The position numbers and the translations under genes were made by a program. From Qipengyuania sp. (GTDB lineage: Bacteria; Pseudomonadota; Alphaproteobacteria; Sphingomonadales; Sphingomonadaceae), in the NCBI RefSeq assembly GCF_042095715.1, contig NZ_JBELMO010000003.1, positions 66,779-130,778 on the forward strand: a stretch of 64,000 nt of DNA, written 5' to 3'. This document shows, piece after piece, positions 10,151 through 23,845 of this stretch. The notes below the pieces were generated by a model that was given only the letters and a program-made list of their open reading frames with translations, searched no databases and had not been told where the DNA came from. Numbering within the stretch: position 1 is the first letter of the stretch; every line of letters begins with the position of its first letter.

Positions 10151-11755
10151 TCAGGCGGCTTGGGGGGCCGCGTCGCGCACGCCCTGGTCGACATGCGGCG
10201 CGAATGGGGTGAAATTGTCCACGAACAGCTGCACGAGCTTTTCTGCCGTCCGGTCGAAAGCATCCTTGTCGTCCCAGGTGGCCCTGGGATCGAGAATGGT
10301 CTGATCGATGCCGGCGTCCTGCAGCGCGGCCACGCTCACCGGGACCTCGAAACCGAAGTTCGGGTCCTTGCGGAACTCGACATTGTCGAGATCGCCGTCC
10401 AGCGCGGCGTTGAGCAAGGCCCGGGTCGCCTTGATCGGCATGCGGCTGCCCGTTCCGTATTTGCCGCCCGTCCAGCCGGTATTGACCAGCCAGCACTGGA
10501 CCCCGCCCTTGGCAATCCGCTCCTTGAGAAGATTGCCGTAGACGCTGGGATGGCGCGGCATGAACGGGGCACCGAAACAGGTGCTGAAGGTCGCCTCGGG
10601 TTCGGTTACGCCGATTTCGGTACCGGCGACTTTCGCGGTATAACCGGACAGGAAGTAATACATCGCCTGGTCGGGCGTCAGCCGCGCGATCGGAGGCAGG
10701 ATGCCGAATGCATCGGCGGTCAGCATGATCACGTTTGCCGGCACCGGGCCCATGTTCTTTTCCGAGGTGTTCGGAATGGCTGCCAGTTCGTAGGCACCGC
10801 GGGTGTTTTCGGCCAGGCTGTTGTCGTCGAGATCGATCTCGCCCGCCTCGTTCATGACTACGTTTTCGAGCACCGTTCCCGCCATCTTCGTGGTGGCGTA
10901 GATCTCCGGCTCCGCCTCGGGCGAGAGGCGGATCATCTTGGCGTAGCAACCGCCTTCGAAGTTGAAGACCGCGGTATCGGACCAGCCATGCTCGTCGTCG
11001 CCGATCAGGGTGCGGCTTGCGTCGGCCGACAATGTGGTCTTGCCGGTTCCCGACAGACCGAAGAACACGGCCGTCTTGCCGTCGGGACCGATATTGGCCG
11101 AACAATGCATCGGCATCACGCCCTTGGGCGGCAGCAGGTAGTTCAAGATCCCGAAGACGCTTTTCTTCATCTCTCCGGCGTATTTCGTGCCGCCGATCAG
11201 CACGAGCTTCTCTGCGAAATTGACGGCGATAACCGTCTCGCTCCGAGTACCGTGGCGTGCCGGATCGGCCTTGAAGCTGGGCAGATCGATGATGGTGTAT
11301 TCGGGCACGAAGCCTTGCAGTTCGTCGGCAGTGGGGCGCACCAGCAGCGTGCGGATGAACTGGTTGTGCCAGGCCAGTTCATTGACGACGCGCACACGTA
11401 CGCGATATTCGGGCTGAGACCCGCCGAAAAGATCGGCGACGTAGAGCGTGTCCTTACCGTTCAACGCATCGAGAAAATCGGTCTTGAGCGCTGCAAACTG
11501 ATCGGGCGCCATGCTGGCGTTGTTGTCCCACCACACGGTGTCTTCGGTCTCACCGTCGCGAACGATGAACTTGTCCTTCGCACTGCGGCCGGTGTGCTTG
11601 CCCGTCGCAACGACCAAGGGCCCGTCCTTGGCCAGTTCGCCCTCGCCGTTGCGAAGCGCATGTTCGGTAAGCTGCTCGGACGAAAGATTGGCGTGGATAG
11701 TGGCGTTGGTGGCAATGCCCTGGTCGGCAAGCGAATGCGATAGCGAGGTCGTCAC
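10151..11755 (-). CDS. pckA: Phosphoenolpyruvate carboxykinase (ATP)
   Basis: [12 protein letters not shown]-loop, [18 protein letters not shown] and [10 protein letters not shown]; GTG start with AGGAG RBS. Confidence 0.96.
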
Positions 11756-18148: not shown

Positions 18149-19606
18149 CTACTCCGCCGCTTCGCGCGCATCAGCGATCTGCGCAACATCGTCGCCCGTG
18201 TAGCGCGGCGCACTTTCCACCAGCGCCACCTCCTCGATCTCGCGTTTGCCGATCTCGATGCCCTTGTCCTTCATTTTCTTGGCGGACACGAGAACTCTCG
18301 ATTCAAAGCTCCGGTGGAAATCGTTGTAGCTCGACACGGCCCGTCCGAGATGCGTTCCCATCTTACCCAAATCCTCAGTAACCTTGGCAAGCCGGTCATA
18401 AAGTTCGCCGCCTAGTCTCCCGATCTCCTTGGCTTCTTGGGCCATCTTATCCTGCCGCCACACCTGCGCCACCGTGCGCGCGATGGCGACGAGATTGGTG
18501 GGCGTCGCCAGCAGCACCTTGTTGCGAAAGGCGAAATCCCACAGCTCCGGATCGGCCTCCAGCGCGGCGGCCACAAAATGCTCGCCGGGCACGAACATCA
18601 CGACATAATCGGGCGCGTCGTCGAACTGGCTCTGGTAACTCTTGGACCCCAGCGTCTGGACGTGGTTCTTCATCGCGCGCGCATGCAGATCCATGTGCCG
18701 CTTGCGCTCGCCATCGTCTTCCGCCTCGAACGCGGCCTGATAGGCGTTTAGCGAGACCTTGGCGTCGATCACCAGCTTCTTCTGGCCCGGCACGTTGACG
18801 ATGGCATCGGGCCGCAGCCGGCCCTCCTCGGTTTCCATCGAATGTTCGAGATGGAAATCGGTATGTTCGGCGAGGCCACATTGCTCCAGCACGTTCTGCA
18901 ACGCCCGCTCGCCCCAGCGCCCGCGCGCCTTGGGCGCGTTGGTCAGCGAATTGCCGAGCCTCTGCGCCTCGCGCCGGACCTCTTCCTGCCCCGCTTTCAT
19001 GGACTCGATCAGCCCGGTGAGCTGGCCGAAGGCATCCACACGCTTGGCCTCCAGCGCCCCCACCTGATCCTCATAGGCCTTGAGGCGCGCGCCGACGGGT
19101 TCGAGCAGCGCCTTCAGTTTTTCCTCGCTCGCCTTTTCGGAGTGGCCCAGCCGTTCGGCGGCCCGCTCGATCAGCGATTCCTGCGCCTTGGTCAGAACGG
19201 CATGACCGGTGTTCTGAAATTCCTTGAGCAGGGCTTCGCGCGCCTCCACCAGCAAACGCTTCTGCTCGTCGAAATTGGCGGTCTTTTCCTTGAGCGTTGC
19301 CAGTTCGGACCCGAGCGCGGCATTCTCCCGCCGCTGCGCATCGAGCGCGGCCTCCTGCGCACCGCGTATCTGGCGCAGTTCGGCATCGAGCGCATCCGCC
19401 CGCTCCGCGCGCACGGAGGCGTTTTCCAGCTCCACGATGGCGCGGCGAAACTTCTCGTCCAGCGCCTTCGCCTCCGCATCGCGCTCCCCATGCCGCGCCC
19501 GCCATTCAGCCACGGGCCGCCCCCCGAGAAACCAGCCGACAGCAAGCCCCGCCAGCAGGGCAACAATGACGAAAATGATCGCAAGCATGTCCATGCGCGG
19601 GAACAT
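18149..19606 (-). CDS. rmuC: DNA recombination protein RmuC
   Basis: N-terminal TM helix, coiled coil, RGRWGE, RPDAIV..IDAK and MFVPGE. Confidence 0.92.
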   Translation of the reverse strand: MFPRMDMLAIIFVIVALLAGLAVGWFLGGRPVAEWRARHGERDAEAKALDEKFRRAIVELENASVRAERADALDAELRQIRGAQEAALDAQRRENAALGSELATLKEKTANFDEQKRLLVEAREALLKEFQNTGHAVLTKAQESLIERAAERLGHSEKASEEKLKALLEPVGARLKAYEDQVGALEAKRVDAFGQLTGLIESMKAGQEEVRREAQRLGNSLTNAPKARGRWGERALQNVLEQCGLAEHTDFHLEHSMETEEGRLRPDAIVNVPGQKKLVIDAKVSLNAYQAAFEAEDDGERKRHMDLHARAMKNHVQTLGSKSYQSQFDDAPDYVVMFVPGEHFVAAALEADPELWDFAFRNKVLLATPTNLVAIARTVAQVWRQDKMAQEAKEIGRLGGELYDRLAKVTEDLGKMGTHLGRAVSSYNDFHRSFESRVLVSAKKMKDKGIEIGKREIEEVALVESAPRYTGDDVAQIADAREAAE

Positions 19607-19728
19607 AGCCGGAACGGGAGGTGTAGGAAAGGCCAGAAAATCCAGCTTTCCCCGGAATTCGGAATTCTTATCGCTTGCGCGCGTCGGTTACGGCGCACCC
19701 GCTTTGGGCTATTCCGAAATTGCCGCTC

Positions 19729-19758
19729 AACGTCTGAAATTGGGTGGAAAGCGGAAGT
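19729..19758 (+). repeat. Imperfect palindromic repeat unit U1
   Basis: aacgtctgaaattgggtggaaagcggaagt; aligns with the units at 20103, 20198 and 21871. Confidence 0.7.
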
Positions 19759-20096
19759 CACCGACCGCTGATTGTTTGCTGCAATCCCGCTCGATAGCGC
19801 TCTAGGTATCGTTCCGCTGCAATGCGCTTCCGTCTAGCACCATGCCAGCCCCACAGCAGACTAAAGGGAATGAGCAACATGGGCAGGCAGCCCCAAAGTG
19901 CTTCCGGGAGGTTCAGCGGGAAGACCACGTAGGCTGACAGTGCGACAAACCCGCAGAACGACATGCTGCTCAAGGTTAACATGACGCGCTCCGTCCCCCT
20001 TTCGGCTGACGGCGGCACAAACGGTTGCACACCTAGTGGACGCGTTCGCTGGGAATAGAGCATGGGCATCAGTAAAGAATGCCAAATCGCTCGCAT
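19758..20096 (-). CDS. Orphan 112-aa two-TM protein bracketed by repeat units
   Basis: MRAIWHSLLM...SMSFCGFVALSAYVVFPLNLPEALWGCLPMLLIPFSLLWGWHGARRKR; the ATG is 6 nt from U2 and the stop touches U1; atypical codon usage. Confidence 0.5.
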   Translation of the reverse strand: MRAIWHSLLMPMLYSQRTRPLGVQPFVPPSAERGTERVMLTLSSMSFCGFVALSAYVVFPLNLPEALWGCLPMLLIPFSLLWGWHGARRKRIAAERYLERYRAGLQQTISGR

Positions 20097-20102
20097 GCTC
20101 GC

Positions 20103-20225
20103 AATGTCCGTAATGGGGTCGTTTGCTGACAGTCCGGATTTGGGCCAATACAAACCAAAGCGGACGGACGCTGATGGACAGCTTCCCAAGCTTCGCGAAC
20201 GACCGATATGGGTGGATAGCTGGCA
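20103..20225 (+). repeat. Mosaic of repeat units U2 (20103-20132) and U3 (20198-20225) with a related internal hairpin
   Basis: aatgtccgtaatggggtcgtttgctgacag and aacgaccgatatgggtggatagctggca; the spacer contains gtccg...cggac. Confidence 0.72.
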
Positions 20226-20395
20226 AAGGATTACAGTCGAAAGCGTCTTCCCCTCTGGCCTAGGGCTGTTGAGCTGTTTGCTTTTGTCTGAACCACTGAT
20301 ACTGGCAATTGCGTTCAAGCCACAGCCAAGTGGGCTGCGCCATTGGCACTCGCCTTCCTGCCATTTGATCGATTGCAGCGCTTAGACCCAACACT

Positions 20396-21697
20396 ATGAC
20401 TTCACGAGAAACTACGCGCCTGTTCGCACTGCCGGACGATGAGGGCCGTGCCGAACGCGCTTCATTTTCTGACGTTGCGCACCGCCTCGCCTTCGGGGCG
20501 ATCGGATGGCCGTGGCTGCTATTCAGTCTGTGGGGCGGAACGAAGGCGTCAAAACAGCGGCTACTCGCGCGCATCGGACTGAATGAAAACTCGCTCCCCA
20601 ATCTCGGCAGTTGGAAGGCGGACACGGGTTTCCTTCATCGGATCGTCGATACGGTTGAAGAGCTTCGCCCTCAGGTTGTGGTCGAACTTGGCGCTGGGGC
20701 CTCGACACTTGTATGCGCCAAGGCACTGGCCCGGAACGGGGGTGGGCGACTTGTCAGTTTCGACCAGCACAAAGACTTCGTCGAAGCGACGGCACGCTGG
20801 ATTGAAGACGAAGGGGCGAAAGCTGATCTGCGTTGGGCGCCTCTTTCGAGCGAAGTAAATGACTGGCCCGGACGATGGTATTGCCTCCACGACATACCCG
20901 ATCGGATCGACCTCATAATCATCGACGGACCGCCGTGGACGGTCCATCCCTTTGTCCGAGGCGCTGCGGAATGCCTTTTTGATCGCCTCACACCCAACGG
21001 ACAAGTCCTGCTCGATGATGCCGCGCGTCCGGGAGAACGGGTCATTGCCAGGCGTTGGGCAAGAGATTGGCCCGAAATAACCTTCGAACGGGCAAGTGGT
21101 AGTACAAAAGGGACCCTCGTCGGGCGCAAACTGGATAATACCGGGGCTTCGGCTGCGCATATCACTTTGGTGAATGACAATCAGCCGCACGGAAGTTGGC
21201 GTCGGGCAGCAGCAATGCTCGCGCTTTTTGGTGCGGGCTGGATGGCAAACGGACTGATAGGCGATCTTGCCGAGCCGGCAGTTGCGGCTTCGATTGTGGA
21301 TGAGGCGCACGCCTCCGACGCGGCTAGCCGAGCGAGGCAGGCAATGATCTCGCTCGAAGAGTCGGAGCAGCTAGATCGCCGGGAGATTGCACAAACTACC
21401 GGTCTTGGCCTTCCCGATCTGCCTTCGGGGTGGAAGGTAAGCGACGTGCAACTCTTTCCGTCCGACCTAGGCAATTCGCTGACGGTAACCTTGATCACTC
21501 AAAGAGGTGAACACCTGTCGCTGTTTGCGGCGCGCGCCGAGACCCCTGCGGAGGAGTTGCCTCTCATGGAGCAGCGCGAAGAGAACGCCATTGCATATTG
21601 GGAGGAAGGTCCGCTGGCATATGCTCTTGTTGGCGAAATGGAAGCTGAGAGGCTTCTACGGTATGCTGCGCAGCTGAGTGAAACGCGGCAAAAGTAA
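20396..21697 (+). CDS. Class I SAM-dependent methyltransferase fused via a TM helix to an anti-sigma-factor-like C-terminal domain
   Basis: VVELGAGAS, IIDGPP and LLDD motifs; TM RRAAAMLALFGAGWMAN; C-terminal LPDLPSGWKVSDVQLFPS..SLF..AYWEEGPLAYALVGE. Confidence 0.8.
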   Translation: MTSRETTRLFALPDDEGRAERASFSDVAHRLAFGAIGWPWLLFSLWGGTKASKQRLLARIGLNENSLPNLGSWKADTGFLHRIVDTVEELRPQVVVELGAGASTLVCAKALARNGGGRLVSFDQHKDFVEATARWIEDEGAKADLRWAPLSSEVNDWPGRWYCLHDIPDRIDLIIIDGPPWTVHPFVRGAAECLFDRLTPNGQVLLDDAARPGERVIARRWARDWPEITFERASGSTKGTLVGRKLDNTGASAAHITLVNDNQPHGSWRRAAAMLALFGAGWMANGLIGDLAEPAVAASIVDEAHASDAASRARQAMISLEESEQLDRREIAQTTGLGLPDLPSGWKVSDVQLFPSDLGNSLTVTLITQRGEHLSLFAARAETPAEELPLMEQREENAIAYWEEGPLAYALVGEMEAERLLRYAAQLSETRQK

Positions 21698-21870
21698 AGT
21701 GCGATGCCCGACATGATCGATCCGCACAAATCCGCCAGGTCGATACCTGAGAGACCGCTTGCGGCCATTTAGACCCACCAAAGGCTGGTCGGCACAATAT
21801 AGATCACCCAGTCATAAACGAAGTCAAACACGCGACCGTCCTTTCCATGGGACAGCCTACCGCGCCAACC

Positions 21871-21897
21871 AATGTCCGCAATGGGTCGATAGCTGAA
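21871..21897 (+). repeat. Imperfect palindromic repeat unit U4
   Basis: aatgtccgcaatgggtcgatagctgaa; same orientation as U1-U3. Confidence 0.72.
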
Positions 21898-21922
21898 ACG
21901 ATTTGATCCGCGATTACGCGGT

Positions 21923-22054
21923 TCAGCTGTTCTTGATCGTTTCGAGGCCCTTGATCCCGCCAGGCTTGAGGCTCGGCTGCGATGCATTCGTTTTGACCTT
22001 TTCCGCCTTGGGCTTGCGGATTTCACGGTTCGATCGCTTTTGACTTTTTGCCAT
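21923..22054 (-). CDS. 43-aa basic small protein
   Basis: MAKSQKRSNREIRKPKAEKVKTNASQPSLKPGGIKGLETIKNS; strong AAAGGA RBS. Confidence 0.7.
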   Translation of the reverse strand: MAKSQKRSNREIRKPKAEKVKTNASQPSLKPGGIKGLETIKNS

Positions 22055-22100
22055 CGTCTTTTCCTTTGTAAGTTCTTTAGCGCTTGAATGGGGCCGGCAT

Positions 22101-22385
22101 TCAATCGTCGGCGCGGCCCCGGTCGGGGTTCTCGTTCGCCGCTTCGCCCTCGTTTTCCGCTGAAGCCGCATCGCAGGGGCCGGCGTAGCTGCCATAGATG
22201 ATGGTCTGGGGAGCGAGGGGGTTGGCTATGGTCGCACCGGTGGGGGCGATATCGCGCAGGTTCCGGATCTCCCGCGCGTATCTGGCGATCCGGCCGAAAT
22301 GATCGCTCGAGGACGCATCCCCGCCCGACGCACCCAACCGCATCACCTCTTCCTGATGAGCACCAAGCAGTTCGTTGAGATCCAT
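22101..22385 (-). CDS. Hypothetical protein (94 aa)
   Basis: MDLNELLGAHQEEVMRLG..HFGRIARYAREIR; AAGGA RBS. Confidence 0.7.
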   Translation of the reverse strand: MDLNELLGAHQEEVMRLGASGGDASSSDHFGRIARYAREIRNLRDIAPTGATIANPLAPQTIIYGSYAGPCDAASAENEGEAANENPDRGRADD

Positions 22386-22488
22386 GGCATCGTCCTTTTC
22401 GGTTCCTGCCCAAAAATTGGGACGTCTCGTGCTCCAGGGCGGGCAGCGCCCGAAGAGCCGACTTCGCGACCTCTTGTCGCGCATGCCG

Positions 22489-22746
22489 TTAGTTGGCGGC
22501 GAGTCGGTGCAACTTCGCCCGCACCTTGCTGGCGCCGGCTGTGCTTTCCGTCGCCAGCAGCAGAGGCTGCCCGCCCAGTTCCGCATCGTCGCTGTTTAGG
22601 AATGCAATTGCGGCATCCCTGCCCAGCGAAAGGAAGGCGAAACTGGTGATATCACCCTGCCTCGCGGCCTGATCGGGAGAAAGCGGAGAGGGCTTGGTAC
22701 GCCTGCGCCAATGAGCAGCCGGGGCGCGGGTCTTTTCTTCGGTCAT
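22489..22746 (-). CDS. DUF2384 / Xre-MbcA-ParS C-terminal-like protein
   Basis: LSPDQAARQGDITSFAFLSLGRDAAIAFLNSDDAELGGQPLLLA resembles the A..FL...N..LGG..PL.L antitoxin fold. Confidence 0.65.
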   Translation of the reverse strand: MTEEKTRAPAAHWRRRTKPSPLSPDQAARQGDITSFAFLSLGRDAAIAFLNSDDAELGGQPLLLATESTAGASKVRAKLHRLAAN

Positions 22747-22780
22747 AGAGGCCAGATCCCTGTGTAGGTTCCACGGAAGG

Positions 22781-22873
22781 TCAATTGATCATCCACCAGA
22801 TCAGGAGCGCCATTGCGGCCAGCAACGCGAAGATCGAGAGATATTGGGGCCCGGTATTGCCGCGAGGATTCAC
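22781..22873 (-). CDS. 30-aa single-TM small protein
   Basis: GTG start overlaps the upstream stop (GTGA); MNPRGNTGPQYLSIFALLAAMALLIWWMIN. Confidence 0.45.
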   Translation of the reverse strand: MNPRGNTGPQYLSIFALLAAMALLIWWMIN

Positions 22874-23097
22874 GGCGAAACAGGCTCTTGCTTCGCCATG
22901 CGGCGGGCCTGCGCAATCGCATCGGCGAGCGTGGTGTATCGATAACCGCCCACGAGATAGGTTTCGGTCATCTGGCGCACGATTCCGTGCATATCCGGCG
23001 GGACATCGGACGGCTGACCGCCCGCTTCGCCCGGTTGCGAAACAGTCTGGATATCGCTGGCGTTTAGCGTGGGACATCGACCGGCTCCCTTTTGCAA
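22870..23097 (-). CDS. Small hypothetical protein; start uncertain
   Basis: C-terminal GIVRQMTETYLVGGYRYTTLADAIAQARR reads like a compact conserved domain. Confidence 0.6.
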   Translation of the reverse strand: MQKGAGRCPTLNASDIQTVSQPGEAGGQPSDVPPDMHGIVRQMTETYLVGGYRYTTLADAIAQARRMAKQEPVSP

Positions 23098-23278
23098 GCG
23101 GGAGCTCTAAGTCTCTCAGTCGAGGGCGCTCACAAGCAGGATGCCTCTTCGATGATCCCGAAATGGGGAGCCGGGGGTCGAATACAAGGTGCCAGACGCC
23201 GTGGAGGCGCGATCTTGCAGCGTGCGGGCGCGGTCACCGCAACGGGATCGGTCGCCCTGCCTGCGCGCAATTGAGGGT

Positions 23279-23845
23279 TTACGCCGCCTCGCGCAGCTTC
23301 TTAAGCTTTTTCAGCGCCATCTGCCGCTTGAGGCGGCTCAGGTGGTCGATGAACAGCACGCCTTCCAGATGGTCCATCTCATGCTGGATGCAGGTGGCCA
23401 TCATGCCTTCCAGCGCTTCCTCGTGGGTGTTGCCTTCCAGATCCTGCCAGCGCACGCGGCAGGCGGCGGGGCGGTCCACGTCGGCGTAGATGTCGGGGAC
23501 CGAGAGGCAGCCTTCCTGATAGGTGGAAAGCTCTTCCGCCGGATCGAGGATTTCGGGGTTCACGAAGATGCGCGGTTCGTTCTTCGTGGGCTGGTGGTAA
23601 TGCTTGTGGCCGTCATGATGACATTCCTCGGGCTCGGCATCCGGATCGTCGGGCTGGAGGTCGATCACGAGGATGCGCTTGGGCACGCCGACTTGGATCG
23701 CGGCGAGGCCAATGCCGTTGGCATCGTACATCGTCTCGAACATGTCATCGACGAGCGTCTTGAGCTCCGCATCGAACTCTGTGACGGGTTCGGACACGGT
23801 TTTCAGCCGGGGGTCCGGCACTTCCAGGATTTCACGAATGGCCAT
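23279..23845 (-). CDS. def: Peptide deformylase
   Basis: GIGLAAIQVG, EGCLSV and QHEMDHLEG. Confidence 0.96.
   Translation of the reverse strand: MAIREILEVPDPRLKTVSEPVTEFDAELKTLVDDMFETMYDANGIGLAAIQVGVPKRILVIDLQPDDPDAEPEECHHDGHKHYHQPTKNEPRIFVNPEILDPAEELSTYQEGCLSVPDIYADVDRPAACRVRWQDLEGNTHEEALEGMMATCIQHEMDHLEGVLFIDHLSRLKRQMALKKLKKLREAA

Follow-up and report, generated by a model that had tools for sequence, protein, structure and literature searches.

Transmembrane anti-sigma factors have been studied as devices that connect the state of the cell envelope to transcription. RseA and RsiW sequester their sigma factors at the membrane until a signal triggers their site-1 and site-2 proteolysis. RseA and MucA are bound in the periplasm by RseB and MucB, LolA-like, lipid-sensing proteins that gate this regulated proteolysis. 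Here, we describe a gene in which the signal-receiving half of such a protein is joined to an enzyme instead. The gene lies in a 64,000-nucleotide stretch of a Qipengyuania sp. genome (contig NZ_JBELMO010000003.1, positions 66,779 to 130,778; the window, to whose numbering our coordinates refer) and encodes a protein of 433 amino acids (aa), with a class I S-adenosylmethionine (SAM)-dependent methyltransferase, a single transmembrane helix and a periplasmic domain (Table 1). As judged by homology, the transmembrane helix and periplasmic domain descend from zf-HC2-type anti-sigma factors that partner extracytoplasmic function (ECF) sigma factors, the enzyme having replaced the sigma-binding domain. 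The fusion is conserved, under selection, in hundreds of sphingomonad species. Anti-sigma factors of COG5662 are reported to be the usual partners of ECF26 sigma factors, and two of them in S. meliloti, SMc01420 and SMc04050, are paired with RpoE1 and RpoE4 (PMC3511301). Reuse of anti-sigma parts has been described in Firmicutes, where the juxtamembrane extracytoplasmic SEAL domain of RsgI recurs in other architectures (bioRxiv 10.1101/2023.06.27.546760).

The fusion protein and the ancestry of its membrane module

Translation confirms a single uninterrupted open reading frame (ORF), and every motif quoted in the original prediction is found in it: VVVELGAGAST at aa 94–104, LIIIDGPPW at aa 173–181 and VLLDDAARPGE at aa 204–214 in the enzyme, WRRAAAMLALFGAGWMANG at aa 268–286 in the membrane segment, and AYWEEGPLAYALVGE at aa 400–414 near the C-terminus. 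Hydropathy has one strong peak, at aa 270–292, directly after W-R-R, and AlphaFold2 places a helix at aa 267–287, in agreement with the predicted arginine-preceded transmembrane helix. By the positive-inside rule, W-R-R ahead of the helix would keep the methyltransferase in the cytoplasm and put the C-terminus in the periplasm (N-in/C-out). The AlphaFold2 model, based on a 98-sequence alignment, has a mean predicted local distance difference test (pLDDT) score of 85.5. Public data hold more than 120 clusters of full-length homologues, at 54–85% identity and 99% length coverage. Against the nearest relative (85% aa identity; synonymous divergence dS ~0.5, unsaturated), the ratio of nonsynonymous to synonymous substitution rates (dN/dS) is 0.14 for the whole gene, 0.126 for the methyltransferase, 0.08 for the transmembrane helix, 0.15 for the periplasmic domain and 0.16 for the linker between enzyme and helix. 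The full-length homologues and the low dN/dS indicate a true coding frame rather than a chance ORF in GC-rich (guanine- and cytosine-rich) DNA. Databases name the homologues "class I SAM-dependent methyltransferase"; the automatic JGI names of two of them include "anti-sigma factor RsiW", which we take to reflect a COG5662 assignment.

It had been suggested that the gene might be a recent chimera generated by deletion, and one could further suppose that it is non-functional, or an assembly artefact confined to this genome, given that the genome is a metagenome assembly and that the gene lies in a compositionally atypical insertion. This is refuted, and we give it practically no weight. A pattern scan with one genome per species returned 507 stretches with relatives, and the best 80 of the 507 all span residues 1 to ~428. 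Carriers belong to Erythrobacter, Qipengyuania, Aurantiacibacter, Croceicoccus, Croceibacterium, Novosphingobium, Rhizorhabdus, Sphingomonas and, above all, Sphingobium. Isolate or complete genomes with the same architecture include Croceicoccus naphthovorans CP011770, Sphingobium sp. CR28 and Erythrobacter sp. NFXS35. Thus, the fusion recurs in many genera, is not unique to this strain, and is under purifying selection on both halves (dN/dS ~0.13–0.15). Its distribution is patchy, with the methyltransferase fusion found in about 5 of 121 genus representatives. The gene is not a chimera, but it is mobile.

The original prediction held that the C-terminal half resembles transmembrane anti-sigma factors, and the two are indeed homologous. 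A profile of the transmembrane helix plus C-terminal domain (profile A2) was searched in 121 genomes of the same GTDB family, about one per genus. It matched 19 of them, and in 12 of these the match was a protein of ~250–300 aa (E 1e-25 to 1e-41). By their sequence, the N-termini of these proteins resemble class I anti-sigma domains; of four compared with zf-HC2, two exceed the Pfam threshold of 22.2 bits (at 37.2 and 23.7 bits) and the other two fall short of it. Each of the 12 anti-sigma loci has an ECF sigma gene (with Sigma70_r2 and r4_2) directly upstream and in the same orientation, whereas none of the seven enzyme fusions of the same sample has a sigma gene within ~3 kb. In the reverse direction, tblastn of three of the anti-sigma factors against the genome of the window gave the C-terminus of our ORF as its sole match, at 34–37% identity (E 1e-14 to 1e-19). 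Alignment of periplasmic domains (alignment A4) reveals invariant core residues common to the fusions and the true anti-sigma factors. A profile of the periplasmic domain alone (profile A4) matches 45 of 301 alphaproteobacterial genomes; most of the matching frames are 250–470 aa long. In other Sphingomonadaceae genera, the anti-sigma gene is part of a three-gene unit, in which ECF sigma and zf-HC2 anti-sigma genes are accompanied by one for a GMC-family flavin adenine dinucleotide (FAD) oxidoreductase of ~555 aa; the oxidoreductase gene is directly downstream in 7 of the 12 loci (L008–L019; e.g., L010 1517–4474, minus strand). No account of the signal or regulon of this unit was found.

The protein itself has no zf-HC2 match even at E up to 10, and its genome has none at E up to 0.1. 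Lacking both the anti-sigma domain and a partner sigma factor, it should not be annotated as an anti-sigma factor; it is an enzyme of the Methyltransf_24 family to which a module of anti-sigma origin is attached. The absence of a nearby sigma gene, noted at the outset, holds for the whole contig of the window, where the ECF profile finds none. The best ECF matches of the genome are on contigs C47 and C83, and neither adjoins an anti-sigma factor of the module type. On C47 (~10434–11368, minus strand), an EcfG-type sigma gene adjoins a NepR-like anti-sigma gene (motif ...LRQLYDEVVEEDLPDSFRDLLSKLD), the general stress response pair, unrelated to the fusion; on C83, the sigma gene is followed by a 352-aa ORF with no match to the module. 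Single-sequence and profile searches of the genome for a second copy of the module returned only this gene, so the same cell offers no paralogous anti-sigma factor for comparison.

Could the methyltransferase domain nonetheless bind and sequester a transcription factor, be it a sigma factor or another, whose gene lies elsewhere? It does stand where the anti-sigma domain would be, and the relatives of the module all bind sigma factors. We regard this as very improbable. The genome lacks an ECF sigma factor of the module-paired type, its two closest being only 30–41% identical to the sigma factors paired with the module; sulfotransferase, AsnB and FkbM domains fill the same position in other members (see below); and the invariant SAM-binding and active-site-region motifs of the domain argue for catalysis.

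The methyltransferase and the other enzymes joined to the module

The assignment of the first ~245 aa to the class I SAM methyltransferases is upheld by both a Pfam match and the predicted fold. PF13578 (Methyltransf_24) matches aa 96–208 (E 1.5e-11; score 45.5 bits, gathering threshold 26.3); an NCBIfam search of the 433-aa protein gave nothing useful. Among solved structures searched by sequence, the nearest are catechol O-methyltransferases (COMT), weakly (E 0.08). The predicted structure, with pLDDT above 90 over most of aa 81–250, is matched by Foldseek to COMT and caffeoyl-CoA-type O-methyltransferases (E ~2e-9; target-normalised TM-scores 0.53–0.67). Invariant in 25 fusion homologues are E97-x-G99-x-G101 (SAM motif I), D123 (the acidic residue after strand 2), D177-G-P-P-W181, D207-D208 and R211-x-G-E-R215. 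When stand-alone relatives are included (98 sequences), E97, G99, G101 and D123, like most of the invariant methyltransferase positions, are still conserved in 90% or more. By eye, D177, D207 and D208 appear to fall at the metal-binding positions of COMT, and the position of the COMT lysine to be taken by the invariant G-P-P-W. With its SAM-binding and active-site-region motifs invariant, the enzyme looks catalytically intact.

Stand-alone homologues of ~250 aa are abundant (e.g., P0123, P0134, P0141–P0161). They are 40–50% identical to the fusion over the whole enzyme domain and share the LP..G.W.A..DFL and DGPP motifs, but lack the C-terminal module; instead, most have an N-terminal hydrophobic, transmembrane-like segment followed by basic residues. 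Membrane tethering thus appears to be general in this subfamily, the catalytic domain lying in the cytoplasm. This points to a methyl acceptor close to the membrane, i.e., a lipid, a lipid-linked intermediate or a membrane protein.

The first 23 residues of the fusion are predicted to be disordered, and T2, S3, R4, T7 and L12 are invariant in the 25 fusion proteins (alignment A1). Despite the predicted disorder, the pattern M-T-S-R-x-x-T-x-x-x-x-L (aa 1–12; 20396–20431 in the window) is kept across genera, and the closest stand-alone relative, P0123, likewise begins MTSR. This N-terminal segment may be a recognition or degradation signal.

The methyltransferase is not the only enzyme attached to the module. 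The representative search and the genome scan uncovered the same module behind four other cytoplasmic domains: a Sulfotransfer_1 domain, an AsnB-like amidotransferase (Asn_synthase plus GATase), an FkbM-family methyltransferase and a 400-aa domain of no assigned family (Table 1). The best NCBIfam match of the AsnB-like fusion is the XrtA/PEP-CTERM amidotransferase, below the family cut-off. The gene for the 400-aa-domain fusion stands between an RND efflux operon, before it, and a PLDc_2 gene, after it.

A maximum-likelihood tree built from the periplasmic domain groups the Methyltransf_24, AsnB, sulfotransferase and 400-aa-domain fusions in one clade, with two true anti-sigma factors as its sister group (support 99/89). 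The methyltransferase-fusion clade has the sulfotransferase fusion nested in it (100/99), which implies that one enzyme was swapped for another in place. The FkbM fusion falls inside the main anti-sigma clade, which implies an independent recruitment. These data show that enzymes have recruited the module on at least two independent occasions, with five cytoplasmic domains in all. In the literature on the PF13578, COG5662, ECF26 and DUF4367 topics, we found no report of enzyme fusions to the module, which is weak evidence given the incomplete coverage. The sequence family is already catalogued; what the evidence presented here adds is that the sensing module of anti-sigma factors has been repeatedly rewired to enzymes. 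The interest lies less in the single gene than in this repeated rewiring.

How the module may act on its enzyme

Modelled alone with 35 diverse sequences, the periplasmic domain is predicted with high confidence (pLDDT 89.9; predicted TM-score 0.85). The layout comprises two helices, a six-stranded sheet and a C-terminal helix (aa 295–429, pLDDT ~90). Among its features are an invariant R-A-E-T-P-A-E loop and an A-Y-W-E strand. Its best Foldseek matches in the PDB are RseB and MucB (2v42_B, RseB, E 3e-4; 6jau_A, E 9e-4; range to 2e-3). The MucB_RseB and LolA families of Pfam do not match the domain, and no solved structure matches it by sequence search. Weak similarity to DUF4245 is seen in 17 of the 35 members, with a best E of 4.7e-4, and there is one match to DUF4367. 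The RseB/LolA-like fold is best taken as a lead rather than as family membership.

Between enzyme and membrane lies a linker (aa 246–266) of low predicted confidence (pLDDT ~53) and variable alignment columns, with the highest dN/dS in the protein (0.16–0.37). Next to the membrane, A-N-D-N is present in 33 of 84 fusions and, by eye, V-I-x-F-P in others; these juxtamembrane motifs travel along with the module.

The properties of the linker bear on the proposal, made in the original prediction, that the protein is an allosteric one-component switch, in which a periplasmic ligand alters methyltransferase activity through the transmembrane helix, without proteolysis. Both domains are conserved together, and the distance from the methyltransferase to the transmembrane GW motif is fairly constant (34–41 aa in 72 of 74 fusions), as coupling of this kind might lead one to expect. 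We nevertheless consider it improbable. The coupling would have to pass through a single helix and a low-confidence, sequence-variable linker, and specific conformational coupling is hard to reconcile with a module that works with five unrelated cytoplasmic folds. Moreover, sequestration and proteolysis are the known mode of action of the anti-sigma relatives RseA and RsiW. The low confidence, variability and high dN/dS of the linker are more in keeping with a tether or proteolytic gate.

We therefore favour, at slightly under an even chance, a model in which the module is a signal-gated tether through which the enzyme is either set free or destroyed, possibly by proteolysis. The protein would be a bitopic inner-membrane protein, with the enzyme working at the inner face of the membrane, and the RseB/LolA-like domain would sense or bind an envelope cue. 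Upon the cue, the periplasmic domain would be removed and intramembrane cleavage would follow, by analogy with RseA and RsiW. As a result of the cleavage, the methyltransferase would be freed from its tether or destroyed. The outcome would be post-translational control of an enzyme instead of a sigma factor.

Alternatively, the module may be a static anchor or scaffold, which fixes the methyltransferase at the membrane and perhaps links it to a partner in the periplasm or outer membrane (an export machine, for instance), with no signal-dependent cleavage or switching. We regard this as a genuine possibility, if a doubtful one. Localisation is evidently important for this enzyme, as its relatives are generally tethered by an N-terminal transmembrane-like segment, and no conserved protease or sensor partner is encoded nearby. 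In addition, in 51 Sphingobium species (L056–L112; e.g., L095 5390–7177), a 595-aa half-transporter of the ATP-binding cassette (ABC) type (ABC_membrane plus ABC_tran) is encoded 58 nt downstream of the fusion on the same strand, which would fit a pathway of modification and export at the membrane. Fusion and exporter may form one operon. In 38 of the 51 species, an MscS-family channel is encoded ~1.5 kb upstream. Further downstream in the Sphingobium loci are a PilZ protein and two ORFs that read like ExbD/TolR. Several considerations speak against a mere anchor. A domain of 145 aa, maintained at a dN/dS of 0.15 and with the anti-sigma invariant core, would be a costly one, and the stand-alone enzymes manage with a bare transmembrane segment. 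The only known ancestry of the module is in signal-transducing anti-sigma factors. Its repeated recruitment by unrelated enzymes suggests that it brings a function of its own. We infer that the module is more than an anchor.

A number of points weigh against the signal-gated tether. Cleavage, release and the signal itself are drawn by analogy from the relatives of the module, and the same observations would be accounted for by a permanent anchor that has a structural partner in the periplasm. The match to RseB/MucB is modest (query-normalised TM-score ~0.48 over ~97 columns). The fairly constrained linker length (34–41 aa) implies that some geometric requirement exists. The neighbourhoods reveal no consistent partner, protease or substrate pathway across genera: gene contexts differ among Erythrobacter, Croceicoccus, Sphingobium sp. 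CR28, the sulfotransferase fusion, the 400-aa-domain fusion and two stand-alone methyltransferases. The exporter synteny in Sphingobium may reflect mere shared ancestry within one genus. Separately, we observe that ion-homeostasis genes (CorA, TerC, GDT1, Na/Ca exchanger, MscS, P-type ATPase) recur near Erythrobacteraceae fusions (L001, L004/L005, L026, L032). Ion-transport genes were considered as a clue to the substrate, but they are inseparable from shared synteny and we do not rely on them.

A more general version of the tether model is that the module serves as a portable, signal-gated tether for arbitrary enzymes (methyl-, sulfo- and amido-transferases), with the cue acting through regulated intramembrane proteolysis and bypassing transcription. 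We think this unlikely as it stands, albeit worth stating. If the module still responds to a cue, then the location or lifetime of the enzyme would depend directly on the state of the envelope, and the fusions provide a handle on what the periplasmic domain senses and on whether intramembrane proteolysis controls metabolism besides gene expression. If it is only an anchor, the annotation is corrected, in that these proteins are not anti-sigma factors, and a membrane-tethered methyltransferase subfamily is defined.

Genomic setting and comparison with known systems

The gene was thought to lie on an island, and the island is real: it is a low-GC insertion between rmuC and def, as seen by comparison with a same-genus genome (G097) that lacks the gene. 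There, rmuC and def are ~325 bp apart, versus ~3.8 kb in the window. The GC fraction of the insertion is 0.54–0.60, compared with 0.64–0.70 in the flanks, and the GC fraction at third codon positions is 0.59 in the gene versus 0.80–0.84 in flanking core genes. In its own genome, then, the gene sits in a recent insertion. Otherwise, the insertion holds only short minus-strand ORFs (19758–20318, 21769–22413, 22101–22586, 22489–22746 and 22870–23097), and a Pfam search of these gave no match. Neither an integrase nor a tRNA gene was found at the edges of the insertion.

When the nearest relative (L031) is aligned to the window by blastn, only 20214–21729 is covered (84% identity), i.e., the gene and ~180 bp upstream of it. 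A candidate EcfG-type general-stress promoter, TGAAC-N18-CGTT at −107, was rejected as a conserved element: it is present only in this 84%-identical relative and not in other genera. The gene is flanked by imperfect direct repeats, at about −175 on one side and +175 on the other. The left copy of the 25-nt pair coincides with the left end of the similarity to L031, and a second imperfect pair (20102–20117 and 21870–21885) is 94% identical. The genome was searched for further good copies of the bracketing repeat, a signature of multi-copy mobile elements, and has none. A search for evidence of expression found none, the sequence being present in DNA metagenome runs only.

Table 1. Features of the fusion locus in the window, and of the other enzyme fusions in their own loci
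Feature	Position	Strand	Basis or remarks
Low-GC insertion of ~3.4 kb between rmuC and def, holding the gene	19508..23280		Comparison with G097; GC
Left copy of 25-nt direct repeat	20198..20222	+	Repeat search families D1, D4
Upstream non-coding stretch, presumed promoter and 5′ untranslated region	20214..20395	+	Conserved with nearest relative only
Whole gene (P0001): 433-aa fusion of methyltransferase, transmembrane helix and anti-sigma-type periplasmic domain	20396..21697	+	ORF, translation, homologues, dN/dS
N-terminal peptide, aa 1–23	20396..20464	+	Alignment A1; pLDDT 44–69
Predicted cytoplasmic class I SAM methyltransferase domain, aa 24–245, COMT-like, Methyltransf_24	20465..21130	+	PF13578, Foldseek, invariant residues
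Predicted flexible cytoplasmic linker, aa 246–266, short NDN motif	21131..21193	+	pLDDT ~53, variable columns, dN/dS
Predicted single transmembrane helix, aa 267–289, W-R-R before it	21194..21262	+	Hydropathy, AlphaFold2, invariant G281-W282
Predicted periplasmic domain, aa 290–433	21263..21694	+	Profile A2, tblastn, AlphaFold2, Foldseek
Right copy of direct repeat	21871..21895	+	80% identical to left copy
Sulfotransfer_1 fusion (P0130), 484 aa	L026 8001–9455		
Asn_synthase plus GATase (AsnB-like amidotransferase) fusion, 836 aa	L022 2360–4870	+	
FkbM-family methyltransferase fusion, 509 aa	L020 3159–4688	−	
Fusion with 400-aa domain of no assigned family (P0185), 579 aa	L027 8001–9740		

How does the fusion compare with systems already described? 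On the enzyme side, the closest are the COMT and caffeoyl-CoA-type O-methyltransferases (SafC, TomG, YrrM/TrmR), which have the same Rossmann fold, SAM motif I and acidic residue after strand 2. Identity to these is only 13–19%; the region of the catalytic lysine is here an invariant D-G-P-P-W, and the fusion has an extra N-terminal region of ~95 aa in addition to its membrane tether.

On the side of the module, the closest relatives are the zf-HC2/COG5662 "RsiW-like" anti-sigma factors, with a homologous transmembrane and periplasmic domain (E down to 1e-41), the same invariant core and the same predicted N-in/C-out arrangement. The fusion differs from these in having a 245-aa methyltransferase in place of zf-HC2, no adjacent sigma gene and no GMC oxidoreductase downstream. 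Structurally, the periplasmic domain is best, though modestly, matched by RseB and MucB, of the RseA/RseB system of E. coli and the MucA/MucB system of P. aeruginosa, in which a single-pass protein likewise carries a cytoplasmic cargo. In our case, the RseB-like fold would be part of the membrane protein itself, and the cargo is an enzyme. Finally, the RsgI SEAL proteins set a conceptual precedent for the reuse of an anti-sigma extracytoplasmic domain, although fold and phylum are unrelated and the variety there is in the extracytoplasmic partners, whereas in the sphingomonad fusions it is in the cytoplasmic enzymes.

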